Positions 18,913 through 41,415 of a DNA stretch of 64,000 bases are shown in pieces (the first letter of the stretch is position 1; each line of letters starts with the position of its first letter). The DNA is from Alphaproteobacteria bacterium (GTDB lineage Bacteria; Pseudomonadota; Alphaproteobacteria; JAJFIK01), in assembly GCA_050331455.1 (NCBI GenBank), contig JBHJGV010000029.1, positions 21,596 through 85,595 on the forward strand, given 5' to 3'. The notes beneath the pieces are model-generated. The model was not told the origin of the DNA. It saw only the letters and a program-made list of their open reading frames with translations, and did no database searches. A program made the translations under genes and the position numbers.

Positions 18913-19512
18913 TTAAAACCGCCGTTCACCCACGCGGACAATATCGCCCGGCTGAATTTTGGTTTGGGAGGTGGCCGGAACGGCGATTTCCGCCTGACTT
19001 CCGGCACGGGTCAGAAAGATGGTCCGGTTATTGGCCCGCGGCGTGAACCCGCCCGCCATGCTGATCGCATTCAGCACATGCATATTGGCCACGTAGGGGA
19101 ACTCTCCGCCCCGCTGGACTTCGCCGAAAATGTAGAAAGGCCTGTTCTCCTCGACCTCGATGCTGACCCGGGGCTCGACGAGATATTGGGCGAAGGCTTC
19201 CGTCAGGCGCTCTTCCGCCTCGCGCAGCGTGAGTTGATTGACATCGACCACGCCGACCAAGGGCAAGGCGATGCCACCGGTGGCATCCACCTCGAAAGAT
19301 CCCGACAGATTGGTTTCATTGAAAACGATGACCCGCAGTTGATCCCGAGGTCCCAGGCGGTAGGCCTGCTGGTTCACGGCGGATACGGGCATGACATTGG
19401 CCGAAGCCGAGGTCATGGGCTCCGGTTGCATGGCACAGCCGGCCATGAGCACGCAGGCAATCACCGGCCCGAAGACCCTGGACGGCATTTTGGCAACAAA
19501 CGACATGATCAT
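18913..19512 (-). CDS. polysaccharide export protein (Poly_export/OPX family, ExoF/Wza/GumB-like), short 199-aa form, lipoprotein
   Basis: Lipoprotein signal VIACVLMAGCAMQ. YRLGPRDQLRVIVFNETNLSGSFEVDATGGIALPLVG is the Poly_export (PF02563-type) motif. A SLBB-like segment and C-terminal QPGDIVRV follow. Confidence 0.8.
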   Translation of the reverse strand: MIMSFVAKMPSRVFGPVIACVLMAGCAMQPEPMTSASANVMPVSAVNQQAYRLGPRDQLRVIVFNETNLSGSFEVDATGGIALPLVGVVDVNQLTLREAEERLTEAFAQYLVEPRVSIEVEENRPFYIFGEVQRGGEFPYVANMHVLNAISMAGGFTPRANNRTIFLTRAGSQAEIAVPATSQTKIQPGDIVRVGERRF

Positions 19513-19707
19513 GACTCACTTACCCTCGACATATCCTCTTGGCACGTGCTCTGGGCACGGATGTCCAAGCCCTGTTGTTGTGCCCTGATCGGTCAGGGCC
19601 GAATCCGTCCGCAGCACCGCTTCACGCCGGGCAGCATTGGGAACGCAGCCCCCCCGGCGCGCGTGCCGCACTCCTTGTGTACCCGCCGGCTCCGCCCACT
19701 CCAAGGG

Positions 19708-21084: not shown

Positions 21085-21186
21085 TCCGATGGGCCCCTTC
21101 TCACACGTCCCAACCGGACTGCACCCCCGGTCTGGAGAGGGCAGTCCCCAGATGAGCCGCTTTGATATCGCCAGGCCTGATGCCCG

Positions 21187-23484: not shown

Positions 23485-24133
23485 CGACTGTCAGACCCTT
23501 TGAGGTGCCGATCGGCATCACACATCCGGCGTGCATCGGCGAAGGCCCTCCACGAGGGCGCGAAGCGATCCGCGCGCTGACAAGCTCTGTGGGGCCGGGC
23601 TGCGCCGCTCAGCCTCCACCGAAGGATGTGCTGCAGGCGCGAGAGATTAATTCAAGATTCTTTCCGCACTCTTGAAAGCAGTGGCGCCGGGCTCGCGCAT
23701 CCACTCGCAATCACCTACGCGGAATAGCCTCTCTCTTTCCGTGTTGCAAGGGCGTCCGCGCGACGGCTCCTCCACCATAAGCGGTAGTCCAAACGCATCG
23801 TAAGTTGCAGGCCCCGATGAAATCCGGGGCCGCCCCGGAGTCCTTTCGTCGGCCTTCGCGCTGCCGGCCGGGCTGGTCGTCGGCCTTCACGCTGCCGGCC
23901 GGGCTGGCCTGCGCCATTCTCGCGACAGGGCTTTTAACATCCCATTCGAACATGGATCTTTGGGGCCTTATCCACAGGCTGCCTGGCCGAATGTCCGCGA
24001 GGGCGCCGCCTTTCGGATTTGTTGTGGATGCGCGAGGAATTTAGGTGTGGCCAGCGGATTTGTCAGGTATGAAGGGTAAGCTTTGGAAGGACTCGCCGAA
24101 TGGTGGGGTGTTTTGATCCGGGATGTAGAGTGG

Positions 24134-25048
24134 ATGGCTTCAGATCCCTATATAAGCGTGATTATCCCTCACCTGAACCAGCCTGACCTGCTGAAGCGAT
24201 GCTTGGACTCTCTCCAAATGCAGACCGTGTCGGCGGATCGCTTCGAGGTGATCGTGGTCGATAACGGCTCGTCGGACTTGCCTGTCGATGTGATCCAGCA
24301 CTTCCCAAATGTGAGACTGTGCCAGGAGAGCCAAGCCGGACCGGGACCGGCCCGGAACAAGGGAGTCGAGGAGAGTCAGGGCGATCTCTTGGCCTTTATA
24401 GACTCCGACTGCTATGCCGATCCGGCCTGGCTCGAGACGGTGAAAACCTGCCTGACCCGGACGGGTGCACCCCCGGTCATCGGTGGTGACGTGCGCATAC
24501 CCCTGGCGCAGCCGCCCCACCCGACGATGATCGAAGCGTATGAAATCGTATTCTCGTTTCGCCAGAAGTTTTATATCGAACACCATGGCTATTCCGTAAC
24601 GGCGAATTTGGCTATGACACGGTCGGCGTTCGATCTCGTCGGTGGGTTCGGCACCATTTCGATCGCCGAGGACATGGATTGGGGGCGCCGCGCCCGACAG
24701 GTTGGGCTTGAGATCGCGTTCGAGCCAACCATGGTGGTGTTCCACCCGGCGCGGACGTCATTTCAGGCGCTCCGAAAGAAGTGTTCACGCTTGAACGCGC
24801 ACCGGTTCCACGAGTGGCAAGCGGCTCATCGGGGACAAGTGAGCTGGTTGATGTCCGCCCTCCTCATCGCGGTCTCGCCGGTTCGTGATGTGCCTCGCAC
24901 GCTGGCATCCTCAAGGCTGGATCGGTTGCCGGATCGGCTGAAGGCAGCCTATGTGTTGCTGGCAGTGCGCTTTTTCAGGGCCCTCGATATGGTGGAACTC
25001 TGGCGCGATCCGGCGCATCGCAACGCAGGGGTGGTTTGGAACCGCTGA
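24134..25048 (+). CDS. glycosyltransferase family 2 protein
   Basis: ISVIIPHLNQPDLLKRCLDSLQMQT...EVIVVDNGSSD...GPARNKGVEESQGDLLAFIDSDC is the GT-A fold DxD region. Divergent from the exoP-like gene. Start at MASDPYIS. Confidence 0.85.
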   Translation: MASDPYISVIIPHLNQPDLLKRCLDSLQMQTVSADRFEVIVVDNGSSDLPVDVIQHFPNVRLCQESQAGPGPARNKGVEESQGDLLAFIDSDCYADPAWLETVKTCLTRTGAPPVIGGDVRIPLAQPPHPTMIEAYEIVFSFRQKFYIEHHGYSVTANLAMTRSAFDLVGGFGTISIAEDMDWGRRARQVGLEIAFEPTMVVFHPARTSFQALRKKCSRLNAHRFHEWQAAHRGQVSWLMSALLIAVSPVRDVPRTLASSRLDRLPDRLKAAYVLLAVRFFRALDMVELWRDPAHRNAGVVWNR

Positions 25049-25261
25049 CACGAAGACAGGGGCACAGTTGTCCTCACCGTGCTGATGCTATCCGACGGTT
25101 TGGTCTTTAAACCATCCGTGGGGAGATGGCTGGACCCGGGCAATCGTCAACTCAGCGGCAAACCCTTCCCTGATCCCAGGCATTGGTTGGACCGCGGCCA
25201 TATTAACCTTTGATTGAGAGACACCCTTGAAAATATTGGTCAGAAGTTAGGGTGAGGAGAC

Positions 25262-25774
25262 ATGATCGTGGGAGCGAGGCAGCGTTCGGCCAAGCCGAAA
25301 GTCATGGTAATATCCTCCCCGGGCGGGCACTGGGTTCAGATCCGTCGTCTCAGACCCGCCTGGACCGGGTGTGCCGTGACCTATGTCACCACCGATCCGG
25401 GGTATCTCGGCGAAATCGCGAAGGATCCCGTGGCTGAAGGCAGCACACCGCCCCGCTTTTTTGTCGTGCCTGACGCCAATCGCTGGAACAAGATGCGCCT
25501 CGCCGTTCAGATGCTGATGATCCTGGCTGTGGTCGTTCGTATCCGGCCCGACGTGATCATTACAACGGGAGCGGCGCCCGGCTATTTCGCCGTGCGGTTC
25601 GGGAACCTTATCGGTGCACGGACGATCTGGATCGACAGTATTGCCAATGCCGAGAAATTGTCCCTGTCGGGACAGATGGCGGGTCGCTTCTGCACCCTGT
25701 GGCTGACCCAGTATCAGCACCTGGCCCGCACCCAGGACCAACAGGGCCCATCCTTCAAAGGATCAGTGATCTGA
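25262..25774 (+). CDS. Alg14-like oligosaccharide biosynthesis protein (UDP-GlcNAc transferase membrane/accessory subunit; Cps14F/EpsF-like)
   Basis: KVMVISSPGGHWVQIRRL...RFFVVPDANRW...RPDVIITTGAAPGYFAV matches the Alg14 family (PF08660-type). RBS GAGGAGA. No Alg13-like partner ORF nearby. Confidence 0.7.
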   Translation: MIVGARQRSAKPKVMVISSPGGHWVQIRRLRPAWTGCAVTYVTTDPGYLGEIAKDPVAEGSTPPRFFVVPDANRWNKMRLAVQMLMILAVVVRIRPDVIITTGAAPGYFAVRFGNLIGARTIWIDSIANAEKLSLSGQMAGRFCTLWLTQYQHLARTQDQQGPSFKGSVI

Positions 25775-25822: not shown

Positions 25823-27466
25823 TCACGATGTGAGGTCGACCGGTGCCTCGTCGGTCTCAGGCGTCTCACCGATGCCGAGACACCGGGAGGCCGCGGCGAT
25901 GGCATCAAGGGCCGCAGCCGCCTGAAGATCCGACAGAACCGCGGTCAGGTCGGCTTTGAGCGCAGCCTGATCGGCCCCATTGGCCATGGCAAGTTCAAGC
26001 CAGACATAGGCCAGGGGATTGGACTGGGTCACCCCTTCCCCTTTGATGTGCAGAATGCTCATAACGAACTGGGCGTTGGGATGGTTGGCCTGGGCCGCCC
26101 GTTTGAACCAGTGCACGGCGGTTGAGAGATCGCGCACGCGTTCGTCGCCTTCATGGTAGAGCAGGCCGAGGGCCCAGGCGGCATCGCCGCGCCCTGCCTC
26201 GGCGGCACGGGTCAGATAGGTGACCGCCCGCGGATGGTCGGCCCGGATACCCCAGCCATTGGCATAGAGCACGCCCACATTGTAGGCCGCATCGATGAGG
26301 CCCTGATCGGCGGCCTTTTCGAACCAGACCCGCGCCTGTGCCGGATCGCGGCGCCCGGTTTCGCCGCTCATGAGAAGCACGGCGAGATTGTACTGGGCAT
26401 CGGCATGTCCGTCTTCTGCCGCGCGCTCATACCATTTGGCGGCGATTACCGGATCCCGGGCCAAGGGTCCGTCATCGGACAGGGCCAGGCTCGCCAGTTC
26501 CATCTGCGCTGCTGTGTGCCCGCCATCCGCGGCTTTCTCAATCCAGGCGAGTCCCAGCCCCGTGTCCCGGTCTTGGCCGGCATCGTTCAAGTAGTGCAGG
26601 CCCAGGCGATACTGGGCCTCGACATCCCGCCGCATGGCCGCGTAAATGAGATCGGACAGGCTTTCGGCGTCTATCCCGCCGCCTCCGACCGCATCAGCGG
26701 CCCGGACCGCGGCTGCCGGGACGGCTTTTCCCTCCGTAGACGGCGCATCCGAGCCCGCCGGAACATCTGAGCCGGCAGCGACATCTGGGCCGGCAGGCAC
26801 GATGGGTGCCGGGCACAGGCCGGTCTCGGCGAGCAGGGCGTCGCTTGGGATGACGGGCGGTGCCGCCGCATCGGCCGGATCGGCGGTTGAGGCCGCCGTA
26901 ATGCGCTCCAGTGTCAGACCGTTCGCAACCAGATAATGGCTTAATCCCTTCGCGCCGCTGACCGCAATCGGCAGGGCCAGGAAAGGCAGCGCATAGAGGG
27001 CCGCCTGCCGCGCCCGCGCCTGGACCGGAAAACGCCATGCGCCGACGCCAAGGCTGAGCAGAGTGGGCCGGTTGGGTTCCTGAAGGGTTCGGGAAATCAG
27101 CCCCCGGAGGATATCGATGCAGGGCGCTTCCGGGTCGCCTCGCCAGGCGACGAGGTCGGCGAGGGGAAGGGTCCGGAAAGGGGGCGGCGCCTCGAGCCGC
27201 GAGAGGCGGGCCTGCACCAGGTGCCGTTCGCGGAACGCTGCAAGGGCTTCAACCCGTATGCGAGCCGACGCGACACTGTCGCGGGACCAGAGCACCAGCA
27301 CGGTGCGGGCGGTGGCCCGCTCCCGGTCGATGGCGTCGATCAGATCCTCCCCGACCCAGGATGGGAAATCCCAGGCAACCGTGTATCCCGCCCGCTCCAG
27401 GGCCGCCGCGACACGGGCCGCGACGGGCCAGTCCGGACGCAAGTAGCTGATGAATATGTCCGCCAC
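25823..27466 (-). CDS. TIR-domain protein with predicted transmembrane segment and C-terminal Sel1-like repeat (SLR) array
   Basis: N-terminus MADIFISYLRPDWPVAARVAAALERAGYTVAWD...ARTVLVLWSRDSVASARIRVEALAAF matches the bacterial TIR_2-type domain. Hydrophobic segment LYALPFLALPIAVSGAKGL. Pro/Ala-rich linker. Then at least 5 Sel1 repeats (AQYRLGLHYLND..., AAKWYERAAEDGHADAQYNLAVLL..., ARVWFEKAADQGLIDAAYNVGVLYANGWG..., AVTYLTRAAEAGRGDAAWALGLLY..., AVHWFKRAAQANHPNAQFVMSIL...). Confidence 0.8.
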   Translation of the reverse strand: MADIFISYLRPDWPVAARVAAALERAGYTVAWDFPSWVGEDLIDAIDRERATARTVLVLWSRDSVASARIRVEALAAFRERHLVQARLSRLEAPPPFRTLPLADLVAWRGDPEAPCIDILRGLISRTLQEPNRPTLLSLGVGAWRFPVQARARQAALYALPFLALPIAVSGAKGLSHYLVANGLTLERITAASTADPADAAAPPVIPSDALLAETGLCPAPIVPAGPDVAAGSDVPAGSDAPSTEGKAVPAAAVRAADAVGGGGIDAESLSDLIYAAMRRDVEAQYRLGLHYLNDAGQDRDTGLGLAWIEKAADGGHTAAQMELASLALSDDGPLARDPVIAAKWYERAAEDGHADAQYNLAVLLMSGETGRRDPAQARVWFEKAADQGLIDAAYNVGVLYANGWGIRADHPRAVTYLTRAAEAGRGDAAWALGLLYHEGDERVRDLSTAVHWFKRAAQANHPNAQFVMSILHIKGEGVTQSNPLAYVWLELAMANGADQAALKADLTAVLSDLQAAAALDAIAAASRCLGIGETPETDEAPVDLTS

Positions 27467-27936
27467 GATGACCTCTTCCCTCCACCCTCCCTATTTCGCC
27501 CAGCCAGGCATGGATCTGTCAATCGCCGCAGCCGGCCTAAAGCCATTGATGCGCAGTCAGGCCGCGCTTCTCATAAACGACATGCCAGGGAATACATCGG
27601 CAATGGGCCGGAAAGGCGGCGGTCCGGATCGAATCGGGTCACTGGGAGAGTAGCTGTACGATTTGCGCGCTGTCCCAATCGGCATCGAACACAGGTGCAA
27701 TATCGATAAAGATACGTCCGGAGGGGTTCTGACGCGCCTCCGGTCCAAAAACTTTTGGATCCCGGCGATCGATCCGCGTCCGGTAAATTTTTCCTTTGCG
27801 CCCAATTGCCTAGGCAAAACATCTCAAATCGGCAATGCCACTCAACCTGTCGCATCATACAGGATGCCCCCATCAATGATCGCACCGCCCCTGAGGCAAT
27901 CTCCCTATAGCTGAGAAGTGTAACCTTACGTACCAA

Positions 27937-27960
27937 ATGTCACTTATATGAATTTGACAT
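27937..27960. promoter_or_regulatory. inverted repeat ATGTCA-N12-TGACAT in an AT-rich region about 80 nt upstream of the giant adhesin start; candidate regulator-binding site
   Basis: Perfect 6-bp half-sites at 27937-27942 and 27955-27960. The surrounding 27600-28038 region is visibly AT-richer than the genome. RBS AAGGGG lies before the ATG at 28039. Confidence 0.3.
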
Positions 27961-28038
27961 TGACCGGGGCGTGGGTGTTTTTGTTGGTATCGAAGGGATC
28001 CTTTCTGTCATTACAACACAACTTAAAGGGGCATTATC

Positions 28039-31000
28039 ATGGCTCAAATCACTGGCACCGGTGGAAACGACAACGGCATCGACAACCCCGCCCTGATCGG
28101 AGCCGGCGATGCGGACACGATCACAGGGCAGGGCGGCAATGACAGCCTGAGCGGACTTGGCGGAGACGACTCTCTTATTCCCGGCACCGGCGTCGATACC
28201 GTGGACGGCGGAGCCGGCAATGACACCATCGATCTGGGATCGATCAGCGGCACATTCGCGCCCGTCGAGATCTATGATGGGGGGGCGAACACGGACGAAC
28301 TGCGCGCCAACCTGACCAATGACACCCTGGACCTGACCCAGGCCACTTTGATCAGCATTGAAAACATTCTCATTACCGGAAGCAGCAATCGCACGGTGAT
28401 CCTGACGGCAGCCCAGATCGCGGGACTGTCCCGCATCGAGGGCGCCACGGAAATCCGCGTTGTCGGCGGCACCACGGTTGACCTGAGCGGCCTGACGGCC
28501 CCAGATGGATCCGGCCTGCCCACACCCATCGTGCTCGACGACGGCGACCAGACCATTGTGTTCGGCACCAACGACCTGACCGTGAATGGCGGCACGGGCA
28601 ACGACACGGCGGACCTGTCAGGGATCGCATTCCCCATCACGGTCAATCCGTCGGGCTCCGCAACCTTCACGGACGGTGGCGGCAATCTCGTCACCCTCAC
28701 CTTCATCAATATCGATACGATCACGGAAGGGAATCCGCCCCAGACCGTCAACGGCACCGGCGGTGACGACAATCTGACGGGTTCGGAGGATGCCGACATC
28801 ATCAATGGCTTTGCCGGCAACGATGTGATCGACGGCGCCCGGGGCGCCGACACCATCGTTTCGGGCCCCGACACCATCGGCGGCGGCAGCGTTGACCGGG
28901 ACAGCGTTAATGGCGGTCCGGGTGCGGACAGCATCACCGGCGGGGCGGGTCCGGACTCGCTGGTCGGTGACGACGGCAACGCCAGCATCGGCGAGAACGA
29001 CACCCTGATCGGCGGCATCGGCAATGACACGCTCGTGGGCAATGGCGGGGACGACAGCCTCGACGGCGGTGCGGATGATGACAGCCTGCTCGGTCAGGAC
29101 GGGAACGATGAACTCCTTGCGGGAGCTGGCAATGACATCGTCTTCGGCGGCGCCGGCACGGACACGTTGAGTGGCGGCGTTGGCGACGACATCCTGGACG
29201 GGGACGCCGGAGACGACAGTATCGAAGCCGGTGACGGCAATGACCTCATCGAAGCCTCCGAAGGCAATGACATGGTCGATGCCGGCGGCGGCGAAGACAC
29301 CATCCGCTTCAACGAAGGCGATGCGAGCCTGGTCGGCGGATCTGGCAACGACGTCTTCGACTTCGTGAGCTTCGCTGAAAGTGGCTCGCCGACCCTGGAT
29401 GGCGGTGCTGGCGACGACATATTCGAGACCACGTCACGAGGCGATTCCATCATCGGTGGTAACGGCGCCGATGATATTCGCGCGAGTGGCTTCGGTGGAT
29501 TGGATTTCATTGACGGCGGCGCCGGCAACGACACCATCGATCTTTACGGCACCGGCGTCACGGTGCTTGGGGGGGACGGTGACGATTCCATCACCGACGC
29601 GTTCAGGAGCGCTGGCGCATCGAGCATAGAAGGTGGGCTCGGCAACGACACCATTGAGAGCACGGCCAGTGCCGATACCATTGGGGGCGGCGAAGGGGAC
29701 GACCTCATCACGCCGGGTCTGGGCAGTGACAGTGTCGAGGGCGGGATCGGCAGCGACACCATTGTGTTCAACGGTCTGCGTGCCAATTACAGCATCAGCC
29801 GTGTCAATGCCGGCAATATCAATGAGCTGCGCGTCACCGACGTAACCCGTCCGAACGACAGAGATACGATTACAGGTGCGGAATTTCTGCGCTTCAGCGA
29901 CCAGGATTTCGTTCCGACCACGGCCAATACGGGCCTGTTGTTAACCGCGGGCAATGGCGGCAATACACTGACGGGCACGCTCTTTGACGACATGCTGACC
30001 GGCGGCACGGGCGATGACAGCATCGAGGCCGTTGCCGGTAACGATGTGGTGATCGGCGGAGAGGGCACCGACACGGTTGAGGGTGCGGATGGCAATGACG
30101 TCCTGTTCGGCGGCGCGGGAGCCGACAGCGTCGACGGCAGCGCCGGTAACGATTCGATCGAAGGCGACACGGGCGCTGAAGACAGCGGCGACAGCGACAC
30201 CCTGCGCGGCGGCGCCGGCAATGACAGCATGCTGGGCAATGGCGGAGACGACGACATAGCCGGCGGTGACGACAATGACACCCTGCGCGGACAGGACGGC
30301 AATGACAGCCTGCAGGGCGACGGCGGCAATGACAGCCTGTTCGGGGACGCCGGCGACGACACCCTTGAGGGCGGCGACGGGAATGACCGTCTCGACGGCG
30401 GCGTGGGCGTGGACAGCCTGGCCGGAGGGATTGGCAACGACACGATCACATCGATCAATGATGAAGACGCCTTCGTCGACGGCGGCGACGGCAACGACAG
30501 CCTTCGATTTGCGGAATTCTCGGTCAGGATTTCCGGCGGCGACGGCAACGACTTCCTGGATTTCGTTTCTTTCACGGGAAGCGGCAGCCCCACGCTGGAC
30601 GGCGGCGCGGGCAACGACGCCATCGAGACGACCTCGCGCGGAGACTCCATCCTGGGCGGCGACGGCGATGACGACATCCGGGCGAGCGGCTTCGGCGGAT
30701 CGGACACCGTGGACGGCGGCGCCGGCAATGACACCATCGACATTTACGGCAGCCAGACGACGGTCCTGGGCGGCGCCGGTGATGATTTCATTTCGGACCC
30801 GTTCAGATCCGGCAGTGCGGCCAGTGTCGATGGCGGCGAAGGCAATGACACCATCAGCGCCACGAACCAAGCCAACACCCTGACCGGCGGGGCTGGCGAC
30901 GACGAAATCGACGGCCGCGGCGGCGACGATACGGTCTTCTTCACCGGGACCATCGCCGACTACACGATCCAGGAGGGTGTTGATTCCGGCTTCGTCACCA

Positions 31001-34000
31001 TCACGGATCTGCGGCCGGGCGTCCCGGATGGGGTGGACCTGGTCCGGGGTGTGGAGACAGCGCAATTCGCCGATGGCTCGGTCACACTGAACCCCAACCC
31101 GCCCTCCTTCATCGTGGGCACGCCGGGCGACGACACTATCGTGGGAACGTCCGCGGGCGAACGGATCGATGGTCTGGCCGGCAATGACAGCCTGGGCATC
31201 ACGTCCGGCAATGACACGCTGAACGGCGGCGAAGGCAACGACACCCTTCGGTATTCGGAAGAAGACGTCTTGATCAGCGGCGGTCTCGGTGACGATTTCA
31301 TCGATTTCGCCACATTTACCGGAAACGGCAGCCCGACCCTCAATGGCGACGAGGGCAATGACATCATCGAATTGTCCAGTCGCTCGGACAGCGTCTCCGG
31401 TAGCGACGGGGATGACGATATCCAAAGCGGCGCATTTGGCGGCAATGATGTCGTCGACGGCGGCGCCGGCAATGACACCATCGATCTGCACGGCGCCGCC
31501 ATCACTGCGATCGGCGGCAGCGGTGACGACTTTATAGATTATATCAACACCAGCGCCGCGGCTGACATCACCGGCGGAACGGGCGACGACGCCATCGAAG
31601 GCACGCCCTTCGACGACACCATCGATGCCGGAGAGGACAACGACCGGATCACGCCCGGCACAGGCAGCGACTCCGTCGATGCGGGAACCGGTGCCGACAC
31701 GGTCGTTTTCAACGGCAACCGGGCCGATTTCATCATTACCCGGCAGAATGCCGGCGATGTGGACACGCTGATCGTTACCGATGTGACCCGCCCCAATGAC
31801 GTGGACACCATCACGGGCGCCGAAACCCTCACCTTCACGGATGGCGACTTCGTTCCGACCACGGCCAATACTGGTCTGGTGCAGACCGCAAGCGATGGCG
31901 GCGAGACGCTGACCGGTACGCCCCTTGACGACGTGCTGACGGGCGGCGCCGGCAATGACAACATCGACGGTCTCGCCAGCAATGACCTGTTGCGCGGCCA
32001 GGGCGGCGACGACACCGTCGTGGGCGGCGACGGCCGCGACGTGATCGAAGGCGGCGCCGGGCTGGACGATCTGTCCGGCGGGGCCGGCGACGACTCCCTC
32101 GCTGGGGACGACAACAACGGCAGCACCGGCGAGAACGACACCCTTCGCGGCGAAGCGGGCAATGACATCCTGTTCGGCAATGGCGGCAACGACCGGATAG
32201 AGGGTGGAACCGAGAATGACACCCTTGAGGGTCAGGACGGCGACGACGCGCTGCTCGGTGAGGATGGCAACGACAGTCTGCTCGGTGAGGGCGGTGACGA
32301 TTCCCTCGACGGTGGCCTGGGTAACGATACGCTGGATGGTGGTATCGGTTTTGACGTCCTCATCGGCGGCGACGGCAATGACCTCATCTCGAGCACCAGT
32401 GATGCCGACAGCAGCGTGGACGGCGGCAGCGGCGATGACTGGCTGCGTTACGCGGAGCACACCACGGAGATTCTGGGCGGGGACGGCAACGACTTCCTCG
32501 ACTTCGTCAACTTCGCCGGAAATGGTGCCCCAACCCTTGACGGCGGTGCGGGCGACGACATCATCGAGAGCACCAGCCGGAGCGACCTGATCATTGGCGG
32601 CGTGGGCAATGACAGTGTGCGCAGGGCCGGTTTCGGAGGCCAGGACACCATCGATGGCGGGGCCGGCAACGACACCCTGGAATTCTCCAGTGGCTCGCTC
32701 ACCACTGTGATCGCCGGAGACGGGGATGACGTGGTCGACTATGTCAGCGGCTCCGCCGCGGTGAATGCGGACGGCGGCGCCGGCAACGACACCATCGAAG
32801 GCACGGTTGCGGGTGATACCATTGGGGGCGGCGGCGACAACGACCGGATCACCCCCGGGGGCGGCGACGACGCGGTCAATGCCGGATCGGGCGAGGACAC
32901 CATCGTCTATTCCGGAAACCGCAGCGAATACTCCGTTGGCGGAACGGTCAACGGCCTCGTGATCGTCGATCTGCGCAACGGCAATCCGGAGGGCTCCGAC
33001 ACCATCACGAATGCGGAGTTTATCCGCTTTGCCGATGGCGACCTGCCCGTGTCCAGCGGCTTTGCAGGCCTTCTGATCAACGGCACCGGCGGCAATGACA
33101 ATGGCGAGCCGGGCGAGCAACCGGTGCTCGTCGGCACGATCCTGAACGACACCATCAACGGCCTCGCCGGCGATGACCGGTTGGAGGGGCTTGCCGGGTT
33201 TGACATCCTCAACGGGGACGACGGCGACGATACTTTGAACGGCGGCGACGGCGATGACGTGCTGGACGGTGGCACCGGCTTCAACGACATCGCCGAATTC
33301 GACGGTCTGCGCGCCGATTATCAAATCACCACGAATGGCAGCACCACGACGGTCATCGACCAGAACCTGATCGGCGGCAATGACGGCACCGACACGCTGA
33401 CGAATATCCGCATTCTGCGCTTTGCAGACCAGGACGTGGCCCTGTCCAACACCGCGCCGACCCTCGGCGCCGATACCCTGAGCGTGAACGAGGACACGAC
33501 CCTCAACACGCCTGTCGCCACCCTGCTGTCCAACGACTCCGATGCCGACGCCGATCCCCTCACTTTGGTCGGTGCCAACAATGCCGTGAACGGCACTGTC
33601 ACAGTCATCGGTTCTACCACGGTCCAATTCGTTCCGGCTGCGGATTTCAATGGTGCCGCCAGCTACGATTACACCGTCTCCGATGGGTTCACCACCAGCA
33701 CGGTCACGGTGACGGTAACGGTGAACCCCATCAATGACCGCCCCGTGGCCGGCGACGACACGGCCTCGACCAACGAGGATGTGGTCCTTGTGACGGGTGA
33801 TCTGCTCGCCAACGATACCGACGTCGACAACGACAGCCTGACCATCACCACGACCACCGTGATCACGAACCAGGGTGGGACGGCGACAAACAATGGCGAT
33901 GGCACCTTCACTTACACGCCGGCCGCCAATTTCTTCGGCAGCGATTTCTTCTTCTACAACGTGACCGACGGGAACGGCGGAAACGATTCCGCCCGGGTGG

Positions 34001-37000
34001 ACATCACTGTCTTATCCGTAAACGATGAGCCGGTAGCCGAGCCGGATTCCGCTTCGACCACGGAAAATGTCGCCGTCACCACACCGGATGTTCTCGCCAA
34101 CGATACGGATGACGACGGCGATACACTGACCATCACCGCCTTTGACGCAACGTCCGACCAGGGCGGCACGGTCACCGACAATCTCGACGGCACCTTCACC
34201 TATACGCCGGCAACGAATTTTGCGGGGACGGACAGCTTCACCTACACTGTGGCGGACGGTAATGGCGGTTCCGCCACGGGCACCGTCACCGTCACCGTGA
34301 CGGGCCAGAACAATGCGCCCGTCGCCTTGGACGACACGCTGACCCTCAATGAGGATATCAGCACCGTGACGGGCAATCTGCTCACGAACGACACGGATGC
34401 CAATGGCGATCCCTTGAGCCTTGTGGGCTTCGACACGGTCACAGCCAATGGCGGCGTGATCACCACGACCCCGTCCGGCACGGCCCTGCGCTACACTCCG
34501 GCGGCGAATTTCAACGGCACGGACAGTTTCACCTATACGGTGAGCGATGGCCGGGGCGGTACGGACACCGCCACGGTGAACGTGACCGTGACGGCGGTGA
34601 ACGACGCACCGGTCGCGGTCGCCGACACGACCGTCACCGCAGAGGACACGCCGGTCGTTACGCCGGTCTTGGCCGCGAACGACACGGATGTGGAGGGCGA
34701 CGTCCTCAGCGTCACGGGTTTCCCGGGCACTTCGGCCCAGGGCGGGACCGTGACCGACAATGCCGACGGCACCTTCACCTATACGCCGGCGGCGAACTTT
34801 ACGGGCACAGACAGTTTCACCTACACGGTGGAGGACGGAAACGGCGGCTCCGCGACGGGCACGGTATCCGTCACAGTCACGCCGGAAAACGATGCGCCGG
34901 TGGCCGGGGACGACAGCCTCGCAACGCTCCAGGACGTGCCTTTGGTCGTCCCGGGCTTGCTCGATAACGACACGGATGTGGACGGCGACAGTCTCTCCCT
35001 CGCAGGCTTCGACGCCGTCAGCACACAAAGCGGCTCCATTGTCTCCAGCGGTGCCAACACCGTCACCTACACACCGGCGGTCGGTTTCACGGGGACGGAC
35101 AGCTTCACCTACACCGTGGCCGACGGGAATGGCGGCACGGACACGGCGACGGCCACTGTCACCGTGTCTCCGGTGCCGAACCTGCCCAACCTGACCATCG
35201 CCAATGCGGTTCTGCCCGGCGGTGTTGAGGAACAGCAGGTCACGGTCAGCTACGACCTGATCAATAACGGGTCGGCGGATGCCCTGGGCGGCTTCATCAC
35301 CCGGCTGTATTTCTCCGAAGACATGGTCCTCGACAGCGGCGATGAACTGGAGCGCACCGTAAACTTCAGCGCGGATCTGCCGGCCGGCACCACCATCGGC
35401 CGGACCGCCCAGGTGACCCTGCCGGAAAATCCGGGCGAGATCTTCCTCCTCGTCCAGGTCGATGCGGTGAACTTTATTCCGGAAGGCTCCGAACTCGACA
35501 ATGTGGGTGTCAGCCCCGCCGCCGTCATCTCCCCGGAATACGACGCGGAAGTCACAGTCGCCCCCACATTGGCGCCCAACAGCCAGCCCTTCATCATCGA
35601 AGGGGTGGCCACGGATCTTCAGTCCGGTGGCGGCGCCGCGTTCGAATTCGTCACCATCGAGGCGGAAACGGATGGCGTGACCCGGACCTTCTCGGCCCAA
35701 ACGGACAGCCTGGGCCGCTGGTCCCTGCTCTATCAGCCGGGCCCGAAGGATGCCGGACCGGTGACCTTCGCTGCGCGCAATCCTGGCGTTCCGGGTGAGG
35801 ACAGCCTGCCGGAGGAAACCACCAGCCTGTTCGGCATGGACTTTGCCGAAACTTCCGTCAGCGGCACGGTCATCGAAGGGACCACGAAAACCTTCACGGT
35901 CAGCCTGGACAATCTGGCGGCGGTCGATCTGACCAATCTCTCTGTCAATCTGTTCGGGGTTAACCCGCTCCTCGATGTGGACGTCACCGCCCCAAACAAT
36001 CTGTCCGGAGAAACCTCGGTCGATGTGCTTGTCGATGTGACCGTGCCGGACAATCCGGGCTTCACCTTCGACAGCTTCGGGCTGCAGATCACCAGCCAGG
36101 AAGGCGCCGTTGCCGAGGCGCCGTTCAACCTGAACATCACCGACAATGTCCCAGTGCTGAGCTTCAGCGAATGGCCGCTCAATTCCGGCATGCTGCTCGG
36201 GGCGCAGACGCTGATCGATGTGGATGTCACAAATACGGGCGGCGACGACACGGGCGAGATCGTTATCACTCTGCCCGGCGGACCGGATTTCAGCTTCCTG
36301 TCCCTCGCCTCCTCCGAAACGATCGCCAATCTGGCCCCCGGGGAAAGCACGACAGTCACCTTGTCCCTGCAGCCCGAACAAGATGCGCCGATCGAGCTTT
36401 TCCAGGGCAATCTGGCCTTCAATTCCCCATTTACGGCCGCGAGCCTGCCCTTTGCCTTCAACACGGTCTCTTCGGAAACCGGCACCCTCGATCTCACCAT
36501 CGTGGATGAGCTGTTCTACTTCACGCCGGACATGCCAACGCTTGACGATGCCCGCGTCGTTATCCGGAACAACCTGACCAAGGAGATCGTGTTCCAGAGC
36601 GATGACGTGGACGGAACGGCCCTGATCGAGGATCTGCCGGTCGGCTTTTACGACATCGAAGTCAAAGCGGACGACCATGACGCCTTCGCCCGGACGGTCG
36701 AGATCAAGGCTGGCGAAACCACGACGCTCGAGGCGTTCTTGTCCCAGCAGGTGGTCAGCTACACGTTCACGGTCACGGAAGTGGAACTGACCGAGACCTT
36801 CGACGTCACGATCGAAGCGAACTTCAACACCGTCGTGCCCCATCCGCAGGTTCTGGTGGAGCCCACAGTCATCGATCTTGCCGGGCTCGACACCATCGGC
36901 GACAAAAAGACGGTCGATCTGGTGCTGACGAATATCGGCCTGATCCAGACCGAGGACGTCACCCTCAATCTGGGCAGCCATCCCTACTACAAGATCGAAC

Positions 37001-40000
37001 CGGCCGTGGATGTGCTCGACGTCCTGGATGCCCGCAGTTCGGCAAGCATTCCGGTGCACATCACCCGGATCGCCGACGGCCCGCCCAACAGCGCACCCTG
37101 CTCCCTTGGCGGCAATGTCCGCTACTCCTACGATGCCGGACCGAACGACGTGAACAAGGTCGTCCCGATCGGCTATATCAATCTTGATGCGCAATGCACC
37201 GGCGCCGAGGGCCAGCCCGTTCCCACCCTGTTCGGCCCGGGCGCCTTTTTCGACGGTACCCCCGGAACGTCCGCCGTCGGGGCCGGCGGCGTGAGCCTGC
37301 CCCCGCAGATCATCCAGACCGGCTCGGATGTCCCCGTCACGGTGCGCATCCAGATCAATCAGCAGGCCGTGCTCACCCGCCAGGGCTTCGAGGGACTGCT
37401 TGAGCTTGAAAACGCAAGCGACGAAGCGCTGACCAATATCGAGGTGTCGGTCGAGATTTTCGACGAAAACGGCGTCCTGGTCGGCGAAGGCGTTTTCGGT
37501 GTGACGGATCCGGAACTCGACGGCATCACCGCCGCCGACGGGACCGGCGTGCTGGCCGCCGACAGTGCGGGCAGCGCCCTCTTCACCATTGTTCCGAGTG
37601 CGGATGCGGCTCCGACGGGCCCGGAGAACTACACCATCGCCGGCACGCTGAAATACACGCTCGACGGCAACGACATCACCCAGCCCCTGGCCGGGACGAC
37701 GGTGGAGGTCCTGCCCGTCGCCGAACTCAATCTCGACTATTTCTTCCAGCGCGATGTGGCCTCGGACGATCCGTTCACGTCTGAAATCGAACAGGCCGTC
37801 CCCTTCGATCTGGGTCTGCTGATCCAGAATGATGGGGCCGGTACGGCCGGCGATCTGACCATCACCTCCGGCCAGCCGGAGATCATCGAGAATGAAAGCG
37901 GCCTCTTGATCGATTTCGAGATCCTCGGCACGGAGGTGAACAGCCAGCCGATCCAGCCCACGCTGACGGCCGATATCGGCGACCTGCCGGGGGGCGAGAC
38001 TGCGGTGGTGGTGTTCCAGCTCGAATCGAGCCTCCAAGGCAGCTTCTCCGACTATGAGGCCACTTTCGAGAGCGTGAACGATCTGGGCCTGCCCGAACTC
38101 AGCACCATCCAGAGCGTGGAAATCCGCGAACTGATCCAGGTGGTGCGCGACGACCGGGACGGCGCCGACGGCCTCGACGACTTCCTGGTCAACGAGGTGA
38201 TCGATTCGGATATCACGCCGGACACCCTGTTCCTCAGTGACGGGACGACCGAGCCCGTTTCGGTGGCCACGGTCACCATCATCGAGGGCGATCTGTCGGA
38301 CGGCCGGATCACAGTTCAGATGAACCAGGAAACCGGCTGGAACTATGCCTCCTTCGACGATCCGGGCCTGGGCGATTTCGTGATCGACAGCGTGACCCGC
38401 GCCGACGGCTCCACCCTGCCCGGCCGCAACGCCTGGCAGACGGACCGGACCTTCCCCTTCGATCAGACCGAGCGTCCGATCTATGAGGACAAAATCAAGC
38501 TGTTCGACTTCGCCGGCGCGTCGGGCACCCAGACCTACACCATCACCTTCGAGGATTTCGATCTCAACACGGCGCCCGATGCCCGGAACGACGCGGTCAC
38601 GACCGATGAAGACACCGCTGTGAACGGCTCTGTCCTTGCCAATAACGGCTCGGGTGCGGATACGGACGCCGATGGCGATCCCCTCACGGTGACGGACGTC
38701 AATGGCATTTCCGGCTTCGTGGGCACGGCCGCCGCGCTTGCATCCGGCGCGAAAGTGACCGTGAACGCGGACGGCTCCTACAGCTACGATCCCAACGGGG
38801 CCTTCGAGGCTCTCAACACCAGTGAGACGGCTACGGACAGCTTCACCTACACCGTCTCCGACGGCGAAGGCGGGACCGACAATGCCACCGTCTTCGTCAC
38901 CGTCACGGGCGTGGACGAGGATCCGTCCGTCGATCCGCGTCCCAACACGGCCCCCGATGCCAGAAATGACGCTGTTACCGTAAGCGAGGACCAGTCCGCA
39001 GGCGGATCCTTGCTTGCAGACAACGGAAATGGTGCGGACACGGATGCCGACGGCGACCCCCTTACGGTCATTGGTGTGGGCCCCGGCGGCACGGTCGGTA
39101 CTCCGTTCCTGCTCGCCTCGGGCGCCCGCCTAACCGTGGGCATCAATGGGGCATTCACCTACGAGACCAACGGCGCCTTCGAGATCCTCAACACCGGTGA
39201 GACCGCCACGGACAGTTTCACTTACACGGTGTCCGACGGCGAGGGCGGGACGGACACGGCGACGGTCTTCGTCACGGTCACGGGCGATACCGATCTGCCG
39301 CCGGAGAATCCGAACACGGCGCCGGATGCCCGCGACGATGGGTTTACCCTGGGTGAAAACGAAACCAAGACCGGGTCCCTGTTCGCCGACAACGGCAATG
39401 GTGAGGATACGGATGTCGACGGGGATGCCTTTATCGTCACGGCGGTGGATGACAAGGCCGCGTCGGTCGGCTCCACCATCACCCTCGCATCCGGTGCGCT
39501 TTTGACGGTCATCGGCAACGGCACTTTCACCTACGACACCGACAACGCGTTCGAATTCCTGAATAACGGCGAAACGGCCTTTGACAGCTTCACCTACACC
39601 CTCTCCGACGGCGAAGGGGGAAGCGACACGGCCACCGTCAACCTCACCATCACCGGTGAAACCGACGGCAATGATGAGGATAAGGGTGACGTCATCATCG
39701 GCACCAACGGCCCGGACACGCTGGACGGCGGGGCCGGCAACGACACCATCGACGGCGGGAATGGCAACAACGTCCTCAACGGCGGCGAAGGGAACGACTC
39801 CATCACCGGCGGCGACCGGTGGGGTGACGATACCGTCGACGGCGGGGCCGGTGCCGACACGATCCAGGGCGGCAGCAACAACGACTCCCTCCTGGGCGGT
39901 GCGGACGACGACTCCGTGAACGGCGGATATGGCACAGACACCCTCCAGGGTGGTTCTGGCAATGACACCCTCGAAGGCGGGGACAGGAACGACAGCCTGG

Positions 40001-40539
40001 AGGGGGGCGCCGGCGATGACCTCCTGCTGGGCGGTTCGGACTTCGGCTCCGATACGCTCCGCGGCGGTGACGGGAACGACACCCTCCGTGGCGGGCCCGG
40101 CCGGGACAGCCTGGACGGGGATGCCGGCAATGACACCCTCGAAGGCGGCGATCAGCGCGACACGCTGAATGGCGGGGCCGGTGACGACAGCCTCGACGGG
40201 GGTCGCTGGAACGACACCCTGAACGGCGGCACGGGCAACGACACGCTGCGGGGCGGTGACGGCGCAGACACCTTCGAACTCGACCCCGGCTTCCGCGACG
40301 ACGTGCTGGTTGATTTCGACCCCAATAAGGGCGGGGAAGTGATCGATGCCAGCGGCATGGGCCAGAGCTTTGCCGATTTCGAGGACGGCACCCCGGACGG
40401 CCTGATCAATATCGCCGATACCGGCAACACCAATGTGGCCATCGTGAACGGTACGGATCTTCAGCTCACCTTCAATGACGGCTCCACCCTGATCGTGGAG
40501 AATGTCACCGAGCTGGATACCAACACCCTCACTTTCTGA
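28039..40539 (+). CDS. giant (4166 aa) RTX-type calcium-binding repeat protein / putative T1SS-secreted adhesin with CARDB-like and VCBS/cadherin-like repeat modules
   Basis: Uninterrupted 12.5-kb frame. Hundreds of GGxGxDxL nonapeptide (hemolysin-type Ca-binding) repeats from residue ~10. About 350-aa super-repeats occur 4 times. Six tandem ~95-aa Ig/cadherin-like repeats (...TYTPAANFxGTDSFTYTVxDGNGG...). A CARDB-like segment (LPNLTIANAVLPGG...). Three VCBS-like ~125-aa repeats. A C-terminal RTX block. A non-cleaved C-terminal secretion-signal-like tail (...DLQLTFNDGSTLIVENVTELDTNTLTF). Confidence 0.9.
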   Translation: MAQITGTGGNDNGIDNPALIGAGDADTITGQGGNDSLSGLGGDDSLIPGTGVDTVDGGAGNDTIDLGSISGTFAPVEIYDGGANTDELRANLTNDTLDLTQATLISIENILITGSSNRTVILTAAQIAGLSRIEGATEIRVVGGTTVDLSGLTAPDGSGLPTPIVLDDGDQTIVFGTNDLTVNGGTGNDTADLSGIAFPITVNPSGSATFTDGGGNLVTLTFINIDTITEGNPPQTVNGTGGDDNLTGSEDADIINGFAGNDVIDGARGADTIVSGPDTIGGGSVDRDSVNGGPGADSITGGAGPDSLVGDDGNASIGENDTLIGGIGNDTLVGNGGDDSLDGGADDDSLLGQDGNDELLAGAGNDIVFGGAGTDTLSGGVGDDILDGDAGDDSIEAGDGNDLIEASEGNDMVDAGGGEDTIRFNEGDASLVGGSGNDVFDFVSFAESGSPTLDGGAGDDIFETTSRGDSIIGGNGADDIRASGFGGLDFIDGGAGNDTIDLYGTGVTVLGGDGDDSITDAFRSAGASSIEGGLGNDTIESTASADTIGGGEGDDLITPGLGSDSVEGGIGSDTIVFNGLRANYSISRVNAGNINELRVTDVTRPNDRDTITGAEFLRFSDQDFVPTTANTGLLLTAGNGGNTLTGTLFDDMLTGGTGDDSIEAVAGNDVVIGGEGTDTVEGADGNDVLFGGAGADSVDGSAGNDSIEGDTGAEDSGDSDTLRGGAGNDSMLGNGGDDDIAGGDDNDTLRGQDGNDSLQGDGGNDSLFGDAGDDTLEGGDGNDRLDGGVGVDSLAGGIGNDTITSINDEDAFVDGGDGNDSLRFAEFSVRISGGDGNDFLDFVSFTGSGSPTLDGGAGNDAIETTSRGDSILGGDGDDDIRASGFGGSDTVDGGAGNDTIDIYGSQTTVLGGAGDDFISDPFRSGSAASVDGGEGNDTISATNQANTLTGGAGDDEIDGRGGDDTVFFTGTIADYTIQEGVDSGFVTITDLRPGVPDGVDLVRGVETAQFADGSVTLNPNPPSFIVGTPGDDTIVGTSAGERIDGLAGNDSLGITSGNDTLNGGEGNDTLRYSEEDVLISGGLGDDFIDFATFTGNGSPTLNGDEGNDIIELSSRSDSVSGSDGDDDIQSGAFGGNDVVDGGAGNDTIDLHGAAITAIGGSGDDFIDYINTSAAADITGGTGDDAIEGTPFDDTIDAGEDNDRITPGTGSDSVDAGTGADTVVFNGNRADFIITRQNAGDVDTLIVTDVTRPNDVDTITGAETLTFTDGDFVPTTANTGLVQTASDGGETLTGTPLDDVLTGGAGNDNIDGLASNDLLRGQGGDDTVVGGDGRDVIEGGAGLDDLSGGAGDDSLAGDDNNGSTGENDTLRGEAGNDILFGNGGNDRIEGGTENDTLEGQDGDDALLGEDGNDSLLGEGGDDSLDGGLGNDTLDGGIGFDVLIGGDGNDLISSTSDADSSVDGGSGDDWLRYAEHTTEILGGDGNDFLDFVNFAGNGAPTLDGGAGDDIIESTSRSDLIIGGVGNDSVRRAGFGGQDTIDGGAGNDTLEFSSGSLTTVIAGDGDDVVDYVSGSAAVNADGGAGNDTIEGTVAGDTIGGGGDNDRITPGGGDDAVNAGSGEDTIVYSGNRSEYSVGGTVNGLVIVDLRNGNPEGSDTITNAEFIRFADGDLPVSSGFAGLLINGTGGNDNGEPGEQPVLVGTILNDTINGLAGDDRLEGLAGFDILNGDDGDDTLNGGDGDDVLDGGTGFNDIAEFDGLRADYQITTNGSTTTVIDQNLIGGNDGTDTLTNIRILRFADQDVALSNTAPTLGADTLSVNEDTTLNTPVATLLSNDSDADADPLTLVGANNAVNGTVTVIGSTTVQFVPAADFNGAASYDYTVSDGFTTSTVTVTVTVNPINDRPVAGDDTASTNEDVVLVTGDLLANDTDVDNDSLTITTTTVITNQGGTATNNGDGTFTYTPAANFFGSDFFFYNVTDGNGGNDSARVDITVLSVNDEPVAEPDSASTTENVAVTTPDVLANDTDDDGDTLTITAFDATSDQGGTVTDNLDGTFTYTPATNFAGTDSFTYTVADGNGGSATGTVTVTVTGQNNAPVALDDTLTLNEDISTVTGNLLTNDTDANGDPLSLVGFDTVTANGGVITTTPSGTALRYTPAANFNGTDSFTYTVSDGRGGTDTATVNVTVTAVNDAPVAVADTTVTAEDTPVVTPVLAANDTDVEGDVLSVTGFPGTSAQGGTVTDNADGTFTYTPAANFTGTDSFTYTVEDGNGGSATGTVSVTVTPENDAPVAGDDSLATLQDVPLVVPGLLDNDTDVDGDSLSLAGFDAVSTQSGSIVSSGANTVTYTPAVGFTGTDSFTYTVADGNGGTDTATATVTVSPVPNLPNLTIANAVLPGGVEEQQVTVSYDLINNGSADALGGFITRLYFSEDMVLDSGDELERTVNFSADLPAGTTIGRTAQVTLPENPGEIFLLVQVDAVNFIPEGSELDNVGVSPAAVISPEYDAEVTVAPTLAPNSQPFIIEGVATDLQSGGGAAFEFVTIEAETDGVTRTFSAQTDSLGRWSLLYQPGPKDAGPVTFAARNPGVPGEDSLPEETTSLFGMDFAETSVSGTVIEGTTKTFTVSLDNLAAVDLTNLSVNLFGVNPLLDVDVTAPNNLSGETSVDVLVDVTVPDNPGFTFDSFGLQITSQEGAVAEAPFNLNITDNVPVLSFSEWPLNSGMLLGAQTLIDVDVTNTGGDDTGEIVITLPGGPDFSFLSLASSETIANLAPGESTTVTLSLQPEQDAPIELFQGNLAFNSPFTAASLPFAFNTVSSETGTLDLTIVDELFYFTPDMPTLDDARVVIRNNLTKEIVFQSDDVDGTALIEDLPVGFYDIEVKADDHDAFARTVEIKAGETTTLEAFLSQQVVSYTFTVTEVELTETFDVTIEANFNTVVPHPQVLVEPTVIDLAGLDTIGDKKTVDLVLTNIGLIQTEDVTLNLGSHPYYKIEPAVDVLDVLDARSSASIPVHITRIADGPPNSAPCSLGGNVRYSYDAGPNDVNKVVPIGYINLDAQCTGAEGQPVPTLFGPGAFFDGTPGTSAVGAGGVSLPPQIIQTGSDVPVTVRIQINQQAVLTRQGFEGLLELENASDEALTNIEVSVEIFDENGVLVGEGVFGVTDPELDGITAADGTGVLAADSAGSALFTIVPSADAAPTGPENYTIAGTLKYTLDGNDITQPLAGTTVEVLPVAELNLDYFFQRDVASDDPFTSEIEQAVPFDLGLLIQNDGAGTAGDLTITSGQPEIIENESGLLIDFEILGTEVNSQPIQPTLTADIGDLPGGETAVVVFQLESSLQGSFSDYEATFESVNDLGLPELSTIQSVEIRELIQVVRDDRDGADGLDDFLVNEVIDSDITPDTLFLSDGTTEPVSVATVTIIEGDLSDGRITVQMNQETGWNYASFDDPGLGDFVIDSVTRADGSTLPGRNAWQTDRTFPFDQTERPIYEDKIKLFDFAGASGTQTYTITFEDFDLNTAPDARNDAVTTDEDTAVNGSVLANNGSGADTDADGDPLTVTDVNGISGFVGTAAALASGAKVTVNADGSYSYDPNGAFEALNTSETATDSFTYTVSDGEGGTDNATVFVTVTGVDEDPSVDPRPNTAPDARNDAVTVSEDQSAGGSLLADNGNGADTDADGDPLTVIGVGPGGTVGTPFLLASGARLTVGINGAFTYETNGAFEILNTGETATDSFTYTVSDGEGGTDTATVFVTVTGDTDLPPENPNTAPDARDDGFTLGENETKTGSLFADNGNGEDTDVDGDAFIVTAVDDKAASVGSTITLASGALLTVIGNGTFTYDTDNAFEFLNNGETAFDSFTYTLSDGEGGSDTATVNLTITGETDGNDEDKGDVIIGTNGPDTLDGGAGNDTIDGGNGNNVLNGGEGNDSITGGDRWGDDTVDGGAGADTIQGGSNNDSLLGGADDDSVNGGYGTDTLQGGSGNDTLEGGDRNDSLEGGAGDDLLLGGSDFGSDTLRGGDGNDTLRGGPGRDSLDGDAGNDTLEGGDQRDTLNGGAGDDSLDGGRWNDTLNGGTGNDTLRGGDGADTFELDPGFRDDVLVDFDPNKGGEVIDASGMGQSFADFEDGTPDGLINIADTGNTNVAIVNGTDLQLTFNDGSTLIVENVTELDTNTLTF
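33451..35175 (+). repeat. six tandem ~285-nt (about 95-aa) Ig/cadherin-like repeats inside the giant adhesin
   Basis: Each unit starts (I/V)ND(R/E/A)PVA...D, contains LANDTD..D.L and TYTPAANF.GTDSFTYTV.DGNGG, and ends TVTV. Coordinates approximate. Confidence 0.75.
38566..39660 (+). repeat. three tandem ~370-nt VCBS-like repeats inside the giant adhesin
   Basis: Units begin NTAPDAR(N/D)D and contain ADNGNG.DTD.DGD and TDSFTYT(V/L)SDGEGG.D.ATV.(V/L)T(V/I)TG. Coordinates approximate. Confidence 0.7.
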
Positions 40540-41324: not shown

Positions 41325-41415
41325 GGCTTCCTCCGATCCCGCGCCGTTGCTCCCGTCCTGGGCTCCCGTCCGGGGCTCCCGTCCGGGGCTCCCGTCCGGG
41401 TCGACGCCTGGGTGA

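Follow-up and report, generated by a model that had tools for sequence, protein, structure and literature searches.

We analyzed a 64-kb window, that is, the whole stretch of 64,000 nucleotides taken from contig JBHJGV010000029.1 of an alphaproteobacterial metagenome-assembled genome (MAG), in which one uninterrupted 12.5-kb open reading frame (ORF) lies at 28039..40539 on the forward strand. As originally predicted, this is a single frame of 4166 codons. It starts with ATG, and its GC content at third codon positions (GC3 = 0.80) is on par with that of the surrounding genes; the ORF is a genuine gene, correctly located. The giant protein that it encodes is already deposited, though named generically, as NCBI MGF1455390.1 ('MAG: Ig-like domain-containing protein [Alphaproteobacteria bacterium]'), and it is found on two contigs, the longer of which is 115 kb; matching contigs are present in the sequencing runs SRR6462991 and SRR6462993. 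The product has a mass of 420.5 kDa and a pI of 4.05 or below, with just two cysteines (residues 3021 and 3053) among its 4166 residues. There is no hydrophobic run of at least 12 residues anywhere in the protein, and therefore no signal peptide or membrane segment. The identification first proposed, a giant multi-repeat exoprotein with RTX and Ig/cadherin-like parts, is supported by the domain anatomy described below, which places the protein in the known class of giant RTX/Ig-repeat proteins and makes it a probable exoprotein of a type I secretion system (T1SS). As a gene call this adds little, since giant RTX/Ig-repeat exoproteins unlinked from a T1SS are common in Alphaproteobacteria.

Domain anatomy of the giant protein

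Searches of the full protein against Pfam returned four families, all well over threshold: HemolysinCabind, Big_9, Cadherin_5 and Cadherin_4. HemolysinCabind (PF00353) scored 456.8 bits against a cut-off of 23 and covered 28 stretches, which places the protein in the RTX family by its repeats; the other three families matched nine stretches apiece, Big_9 with 504.5 bits. In NCBIfam, the protein proved to be a member of the tandem-95 family NF012211 (tand_rpt_95; 496.8 bits, cut-off 90, nine stretches), and the remaining matches were partial RTX ones, each under its own cut-off. Calcium-binding nonapeptides had been noticed at both ends of the protein and were found there: of 69 GxGxDx[LIVMFY] motifs, 58 fall at residues 49-1736 and 11 at residues 3898-4073.

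The N-terminal RTX beta-roll region extends over ~1,800 aa. The four super-repeats expected there were recovered by self-BLAST at residues 240-640, 650-1012, ~868/1020-1287 and 1287-1686; they measure ~400 aa each and share 45-52% protein identity. Sequence matches in the PDB were to CyaA, serralysin and lipase for this N-terminal RTX part, and to serralysin/PrtC and AlgE R-modules for the C-terminal RTX block. An AlphaFold2 (AF2) model of residues 1-640 (predicted local distance difference test score, pLDDT, 73.8 overall) contains a confident beta-roll at residues 240-580, mostly above 85, with low confidence at residues 1-60 and 150-230. The best PDB matches of this beta-roll in Foldseek were the CyaA RTX domain, the Ca2+-dependent MpIBP beta-helix (RIV) and RsaA, all of them T1SS cargo, and lipases were matched too. 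The CyaA RTX domain and RsaA likewise consist of several consecutive long beta-roll blocks, and residues 240-800 match them best in both sequence and fold. Unlike these proteins, the giant protein lacks adenylate cyclase, hydrophobic and acylation regions, and it is not an S-layer-sized protein.

Self-comparison also confirmed the six tandem ~95-aa repeats of the original prediction, at residues 1885-2460, and revealed a degenerate seventh copy at residues 1793-1884. Three C-proximal repeats are present as well, at ~120 aa each, and here the predicted VCBS-like label proved unsupported: no VCBS family (PF13517/TIGR01965) appears in the Pfam or NCBIfam output, and the repeats (residues 3500-3873) match Big_9 (156.8 bits), Cadherin_4 and Cadherin_5 in Pfam as well as tandem-95. 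Nor does the protein consist almost entirely of repeats, because residues 2450-3500, 25% of its length, are without internal repeat. The claim of a CARDB-like module was not confirmed by score. PF07705 is absent from the Pfam listing of the full-length protein, and its two best matches stay sub-threshold (20.4 and 13.6 bits against 22.7). In relatives, PF07705 is present in the homologous region, so that "CARDB-like" is reasonable as a description of fold only.

The closest relative is a 4943-aa orthologue from another alphaproteobacterial MAG (locus L003), which is collinear with the giant protein from end to end. It has 14 Big_9 stretches versus nine, three additional tandem-95 copies and ~480 more residues near the C-terminus; size variation is thus real on an evolutionary scale. 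The predicted C-terminal tail follows the RTX block over 91 aa and, judged from its composition and position, is presumed to be an uncleaved T1SS signal region. Across a 128-residue alignment, the last 150 aa share 48% identity with those of the orthologue, with the common ending ...VENVT.LD..NF... In its C-terminal ~130 aa, the protein is similar to the C-terminal ends of SMc04171-type RTX proteins of rhizobia and of AlgE R-modules. The SMc04171 equivalog model NF046115 itself matched 17 partial stretches in the super-repeats and the C-terminus, with 388.4 bits against a cut-off of 625. The coordinates of all parts are collected in Table 1.

Table 1. Features of the giant gene and its start region (positions in the window; aa, residues of the giant protein).
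Feature	Position	Strand	Remarks
Inverted repeat AATGTCA-N12-TGACATT	27936..27961		contains TTGACA; 78-103 nt 5' of the ATG
Shine-Dalgarno-like AAGGGG	28026..28031	+	7 nt before the ATG; block kept in orthologue locus L003
N-terminal 240 aa	28039..28758	+	nonapeptides from ~residue 20, then short-strand solenoid-like repeats
Four ~400-aa RTX super-repeats	28756..33096	+	a long beta-roll each, closing with a ~65-aa tail module
Tandem-95/Big_9/Cadherin_5 array	33415..35418	+	aa 1793-2460; one degenerate and six ~95-aa copies
Module half A	35386..37215	+	aa 2450-3059; about six beta-sandwich domains
Short disordered linker between halves	37198..37323	+	aa 3054-3095
Module half B	37318..38538	+	aa 3094-3500; all-beta, best-conserved part
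Three ~120-aa Big_9/tandem-95 repeats with insertion	38536..39657	+	aa 3500-3873
C-terminal RTX block	39691..40263	+	aa 3885-4075; 11 canonical nonapeptides
C-terminal 91-aa tail	40264..40536	+	aa 4076-4166; ending ...VENVTELDTNTLTF

The central module and its relatives

The repeat-free region forms a central module of 1,050 aa, which the original prediction missed and which is the most distinctive part of the protein. It is also the best conserved part between the orthologues, at ~74-92% identity versus 44-70% for most RTX parts. In half A, likeness to CARDB, NPCBM_assoc and CarboxypepD_reg was sub-threshold in every case. The linker has a pLDDT below 50 (model residues 605-646), both cysteines of the protein lie shortly before it, where half A ends, and it is ~220-400 aa longer in most relatives. 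Half B carries the motifs SDDPFT, QPEIIENE and WQTDRTF and is modelled with a pLDDT of mostly 84-96. It has no Pfam-A match, either in the giant protein or in four diverse homologues, and only a marginal match to an FxLYD domain in NCBIfam. Fold searches of the module returned generic Ig/ASH/PapD/MG beta-sandwich arrays only (hydin, complement/alpha-2-macroglobulin, cadherins, intimin). We considered an alpha-2-macroglobulin-like reading and dropped it, because no higher-order fold was matched.

A full HMMER scan of 1.84 billion 50%-cluster representatives showed that relatives of the module are very widespread: 3699 representatives were found at E<=1e-3 and 2084 at E<=1e-30, and module-bearing relatives range from ~1,300 to ~7,600 aa. 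The impression of a rare module, gained from a word-index search with 3 matches, was rejected as a sensitivity artefact. Scanning one genome per species yielded 43 module loci, nearly all in Verrucomicrobiota or Planctomycetota MAGs and at 32-47% identity, among which the alphaproteobacterial orthologue was the only close match. A metagenome scan with half B added 67 loci from marine, freshwater, mat, gut and rumen sources, none of them a closer orthologue at more than 50% identity. The domains that accompany the module are diverse (dockerin, Calx-beta, Ig, Laminin_G, lectin, Peptidase_S8, RTX). In a crude screen of 209 module proteins, 66 had a signal-peptide-like N-terminus, and 16, the giant protein included, had at least six RTX-like nonapeptides; several begin directly with RTX-like sequence.

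The whole module is shared, at 32-47% identity, with giant CARDB/CarboxypepD_reg surface proteins of Verrucomicrobiota, Planctomycetota and Cyanobacteria (for example P0001, P0006, P0154 and P0160). Proteins of this type differ from the giant protein in their often signal-peptide-like start, in their dockerin, Calx-beta, Ig and Laminin_G partners and in the insert of 220-400 aa that mostly separates the two halves, and they are without T1SS linkage. A more distant relative, P0207, is a 4146-aa 'Ig-like domain-containing protein' from a Pseudomonadota MAG (GCA_039026755.1, locus L046). It likewise combines tandem-95 repeats with the central module (30-57% identity) but differs in its N- and C-terminal regions, in the lack of RTX nonapeptides and in a linked T1SS, with an ATP-binding cassette (ABC) exporter and an AprE-type membrane-fusion protein (MFP) encoded within ~1 kb downstream. 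At L046 (12940-16964), the exporter (600 aa) and the MFP (457 aa) are preceded by a protein of 245 aa, which begins like a signal peptide and has no Pfam match and no homologue in the window.

In P0010 (L052, 10001-23815) and P0017, the N-terminus is directly RTX and is followed by Calx-beta, the module, SdrD_B and Peptidase_S8. We rejected Peptidase_S8 as a part of the module, since it sits ~800 aa downstream in these two proteins and the giant protein has no S8 domain. A C-terminal dockerin match was found in P0010 only, not in P0017; hallmarks of differing export or anchoring routes are thus mixed. No T1SS was found near P0010 in L052.

We tentatively propose, as a credible reading short of a probable one, that the 1,050-aa cassette, and chiefly its ~400-aa half B, is an undescribed domain family that forms the functional head in giant surface proteins of many phyla and is swapped between export scaffolds. 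These scaffolds appear to be, in Planctomycetota and Verrucomicrobiota, Sec combined with dockerin, and further S8-protease fusions, non-RTX T1SS cargo and alphaproteobacterial RTX proteins; the cassette on the alphaproteobacterial RTX scaffold was possibly acquired by lateral transfer. Conserved, confidently modelled, very widespread and, in half B, unannotated, the module is an obvious target for learning what such proteins bind.

Proposed export and release, and competing interpretations

The giant gene had been described as having no T1SS, LapG or LapD gene within about 12 kb on either side. This holds well beyond that distance: no T1SS ABC transporter, MFP, TolC, LapG or LapD gene was found in the whole window or in a further ~9 kb to its right and ~4.4 kb to its left, reached through the second assembly, GCA_964406365.1 (~80 kb in all). 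MlaF is the sole ABC ATPase in the window, and tblastn with bona fide T1SS ABC and MFP proteins finds only the MlaF fold. The "orphan" aspect first stressed would be nothing unusual, as an unlinked exporter is ordinary for the class: a single T1SS, such as PrsDE of rhizobia, can serve many substrates whose genes are not linked to it (PMC3034196, PMC2275737). In Rhizobium, the cargo of PrsDE includes NodO, glycanases and Rap proteins, all with genes at other sites (PMC3034196, PMC2275737, PMC9298526). PrsDE substrates (Rap, NodO and the SMc04171 family) are likewise alphaproteobacterial RTX/cadherin-like Ca2+-binding exoproteins whose genes lie away from the exporter (PMC3034196, PMC2275737, PMC9298526). 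The giant protein differs from them in being about ten times larger, and no Ra/CHDL domain was identified in it as such.

Export by a T1SS is suggested by the lack of a signal peptide, the extreme acidity, the near absence of cysteine, the RTX block directly before the tail and the likeness of the C-terminus to known RTX exoproteins. AlgE epimerases, whose R-modules are among these matches, are T1SS-exported. We consider it reasonably probable that the giant protein, with its 420 kDa and extreme acidity, is an extracellular megaprotein dependent on Ca2+ that is exported by an unlinked T1SS, fully released and active as an adhesin or matrix protein. In favour of this reading are also the best fold matches of the beta-roll, which are T1SS cargo, the exporter and MFP genes directly behind P0207, and the complete architecture retained in the orthologue. 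It would leave the cell unfolded and C-terminus first, through a T1SS (ABC transporter, MFP and TolC-like channel) encoded elsewhere in the genome, with the tail as its signal. Beta-rolls would form only on contact with extracellular Ca2+, first in the C-terminal RTX block and later in the N-terminal super-repeats (~1,800 aa). As the N-terminal third needs Ca2+ to fold, it would form no cytoplasmic plug, from which we infer full release; lacking a Ca2+-independent N-terminal plug, the protein would probably not be retained in TolC. Once released, it may act as an adhesin or biofilm-matrix protein, in which the Ig-like tandem-95 repeats would be spacers and the central beta-sandwich module the specific interaction surface.

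Several observations weigh against this reading. No T1SS component is encoded in the ~80 kb around the gene, nor in 23 kb around the orthologue, and no HMM of a T1SS C-terminal signal matched in NCBIfam. P0207, with its linked exporter, is without RTX nonapeptides and has only the middle of the protein in common with the giant protein. Furthermore, a T1SS pair stands beside a module gene in only one of ~110 module loci (L046; tblastn, 120 fetched loci), and many module proteins are of Sec type, with signal peptide and dockerin and without a T1SS link. Finally, the polysaccharide-export cluster that lies upstream of the giant gene is not kept beside the orthologue.

This cluster bears on a further interpretation, which we regard as unlikely: the giant protein might be a secreted matrix protein that, like Rap proteins, binds exopolysaccharide or capsule of the cell that makes it rather than foreign surfaces, and that is functionally linked to the adjacent Wza/Wzy/Wzc-type cluster. 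Polysaccharide export and polymerisation genes do lie within the stretch 0.6-9 kb upstream (18913-25774), the protein has cadherin-like Ca2+-binding repeats, and PrsDE-secreted Rap proteins with cadherin-like domains bind exopolysaccharide (PMC9298526). The neighbourhood is not conserved, however, as the orthologue lies between the gene for an Sbt_1 transporter and those for an alpha/beta-hydrolase, EamA and pyruvate kinase. In addition, the divergent TIR-Sel1 gene stands between the giant gene and the cluster, and no lectin or CBM domain was detected in the protein.

What defines RTX adhesins of the LapA, MpIBP, FrhA and AhLap type is an N-terminal retention domain that does not depend on Ca2+, plugs the outer-membrane channel of the T1SS and is the target of LapG (PMC12077191). 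The giant protein resembles them in its size of hundreds of kDa, in the lack of a signal peptide and in a layout of Ig-like extenders, non-repetitive region, C-terminal RTX and tail (PMC12077191), and its residues 497-598 match the RTX-like ligand-binding domain of AhLap (9CSE, E=4.8e-6). An anchored adhesin of this type, with a retention module in the TolC channel and a LapG/LapD cyclic di-GMP switch encoded elsewhere, is nevertheless improbable. RTX nonapeptides begin at ~residue 20, with a HemolysinCabind match in Pfam at residues 21-55. For residues 1-240, NCBIfam returned only RTX families and no retention-module family, even at E<=1, and the homologues (n=123) are small generic 'calcium-binding proteins'. 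AF2 gave no confident compact N-terminal domain, and Foldseek found beta-roll and beta-helix proteins only. A conserved LTAAQ at residues 122-126, kept in the L003 orthologue, would speak for an anchored protein, the LapG target in LapA being a di-alanine, but the motif reads TAAQ and is not a TAAG-type site. The Ig-like extender repeats and C-terminal RTX of LapA-like proteins are present, whereas the linked lapEBC T1SS, LapG and LapD genes are not, either in the ~80 kb or beside the orthologue. Unlike LapA, MpIBP, FrhA and AhLap, the giant protein has ~1,800 aa of RTX beta-roll at its N-terminus, and its central region is made of beta-sandwiches only, with no CBM, PBD or vWFA detected that would be projected from a split domain.

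Taken together, these results demonstrate that a LapA-type retention module is absent and that, for this reason, the giant protein is not a LapA-like anchored adhesin. The expectation that a LapG/LapD-type release system should accompany it does not apply, the module targeted by that system being absent. The protein is a clear case of an RTX megaprotein unable to use LapA-type retention and release, and because its N-terminus is itself Ca2+-dependent RTX, the term "RTX adhesin" should not imply LapG/LapD control.

It is highly improbable that the gene is a pseudogene or an assembly artefact, whether by collapse or expansion of the repeat array or as a chimeric ORF. What speaks for such a reading is that the sequence comes from a MAG, that the window assembly has error patches elsewhere (994-1021, 5355-5380) and that the gene is rich in repeats. 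The near-identical nucleotide stretches on which the original prediction based its concern exist to a limited extent: the 23-mer that it quoted is exact at 29908 and 31849, with 0 such repeats expected by chance, but the longest exact internal repeat measures 29 nt and DNA identity between repeat copies is only 64-72%. Moreover, a second assembly (GCA_964406365.1, contig CAYORL010000019.1, locus L001) holds the giant gene with 0 mismatches and 100% DNA identity, although the two agreeing assemblies may both be short-read. As the repeats are too diverged and the second assembly agrees, the argument from mis-assembly and recombination is weak; the frame of 12.5 kb is unbroken, its GC3 is gene-like and the orthologue is collinear throughout. 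Least credible of all is an RTX cytotoxin of MARTX-like or CyaA-like type, for although CyaA is the best PDB sequence and fold match of the RTX region and the NCBIfam model RTX_toxin (NF033943) matched in part, its 381.5 bits come from the RTX repeats alone (cut-off 1000), no hydrophobic pore-forming segment and no effector or enzymatic domain were found, and neither an RtxC-type acyltransferase nor a T1SS operon lies nearby.

Start region, neighbouring genes and local assembly differences

In their upstream regions, the giant gene and its L003 orthologue have only short blocks in common; one of these is the inverted repeat upstream of the ATG, which is kept despite their differing neighbours. 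From its sequence and conservation, it may be regarded as a candidate operator or promoter element; a sigma-70 promoter scan 5' of the giant gene returned no site.

The flanking genes are those originally named. On the upstream side, a divergent gene (25823-27466, reverse strand) encodes a protein of 547 aa that combines TIR_2 at its N-terminus with five Sel1 repeats; this protein has no defence-system match in PADLOC and no counterpart beside the orthologue. Beyond it, the polysaccharide cluster comprises Poly_export/SLBB (Wza-like), Wzy_C, Wzz-GNVR-AAA_31 (Wzc-like), GT2 and Alg14-like genes. It is adjoined by an ORF at 16580-18835 on the forward strand, of 751 aa from its first start (631 aa according to NCBI), which has no Pfam match and an unusually high GC content at second codon positions (0.67). 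Downstream of the giant gene lie gmk, yicC, mltG, fabF, acpP, fabG, fabD, rpsF, rpsR, rplI and dnaB, and elsewhere in the window are tolQRB, ruvB, alr, mlaEF and genes for an AbgT transporter and a TonB-dependent receptor.

Comparison with GCA_964406365.1 revealed clustered A-rich substitutions at 994-1021 and 5355-5380. The first patch introduces an in-frame stop into tolB, which is split into ORFs at 997-1872 and 466-975 (the tolB of locus L049 is intact, with 468 aa), and the second falls in ruvB; both look like local errors of the window assembly rather than real pseudogenes. In the gmk/yicC intergenic region (~41388-41400), L001 has a 13-bp direct duplication, GGGGCTCCCGTCC, that the window does not have. 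At 54022-59216 on the reverse strand, a 577-aa protein with TPR and 2-oxoglutarate-Fe(II) oxygenase (2OG-Fe(II)) domains is encoded beside the TonB-dependent receptor, which is outsized at 1134 aa and carries an N-terminal CarboxypepD_reg domain.

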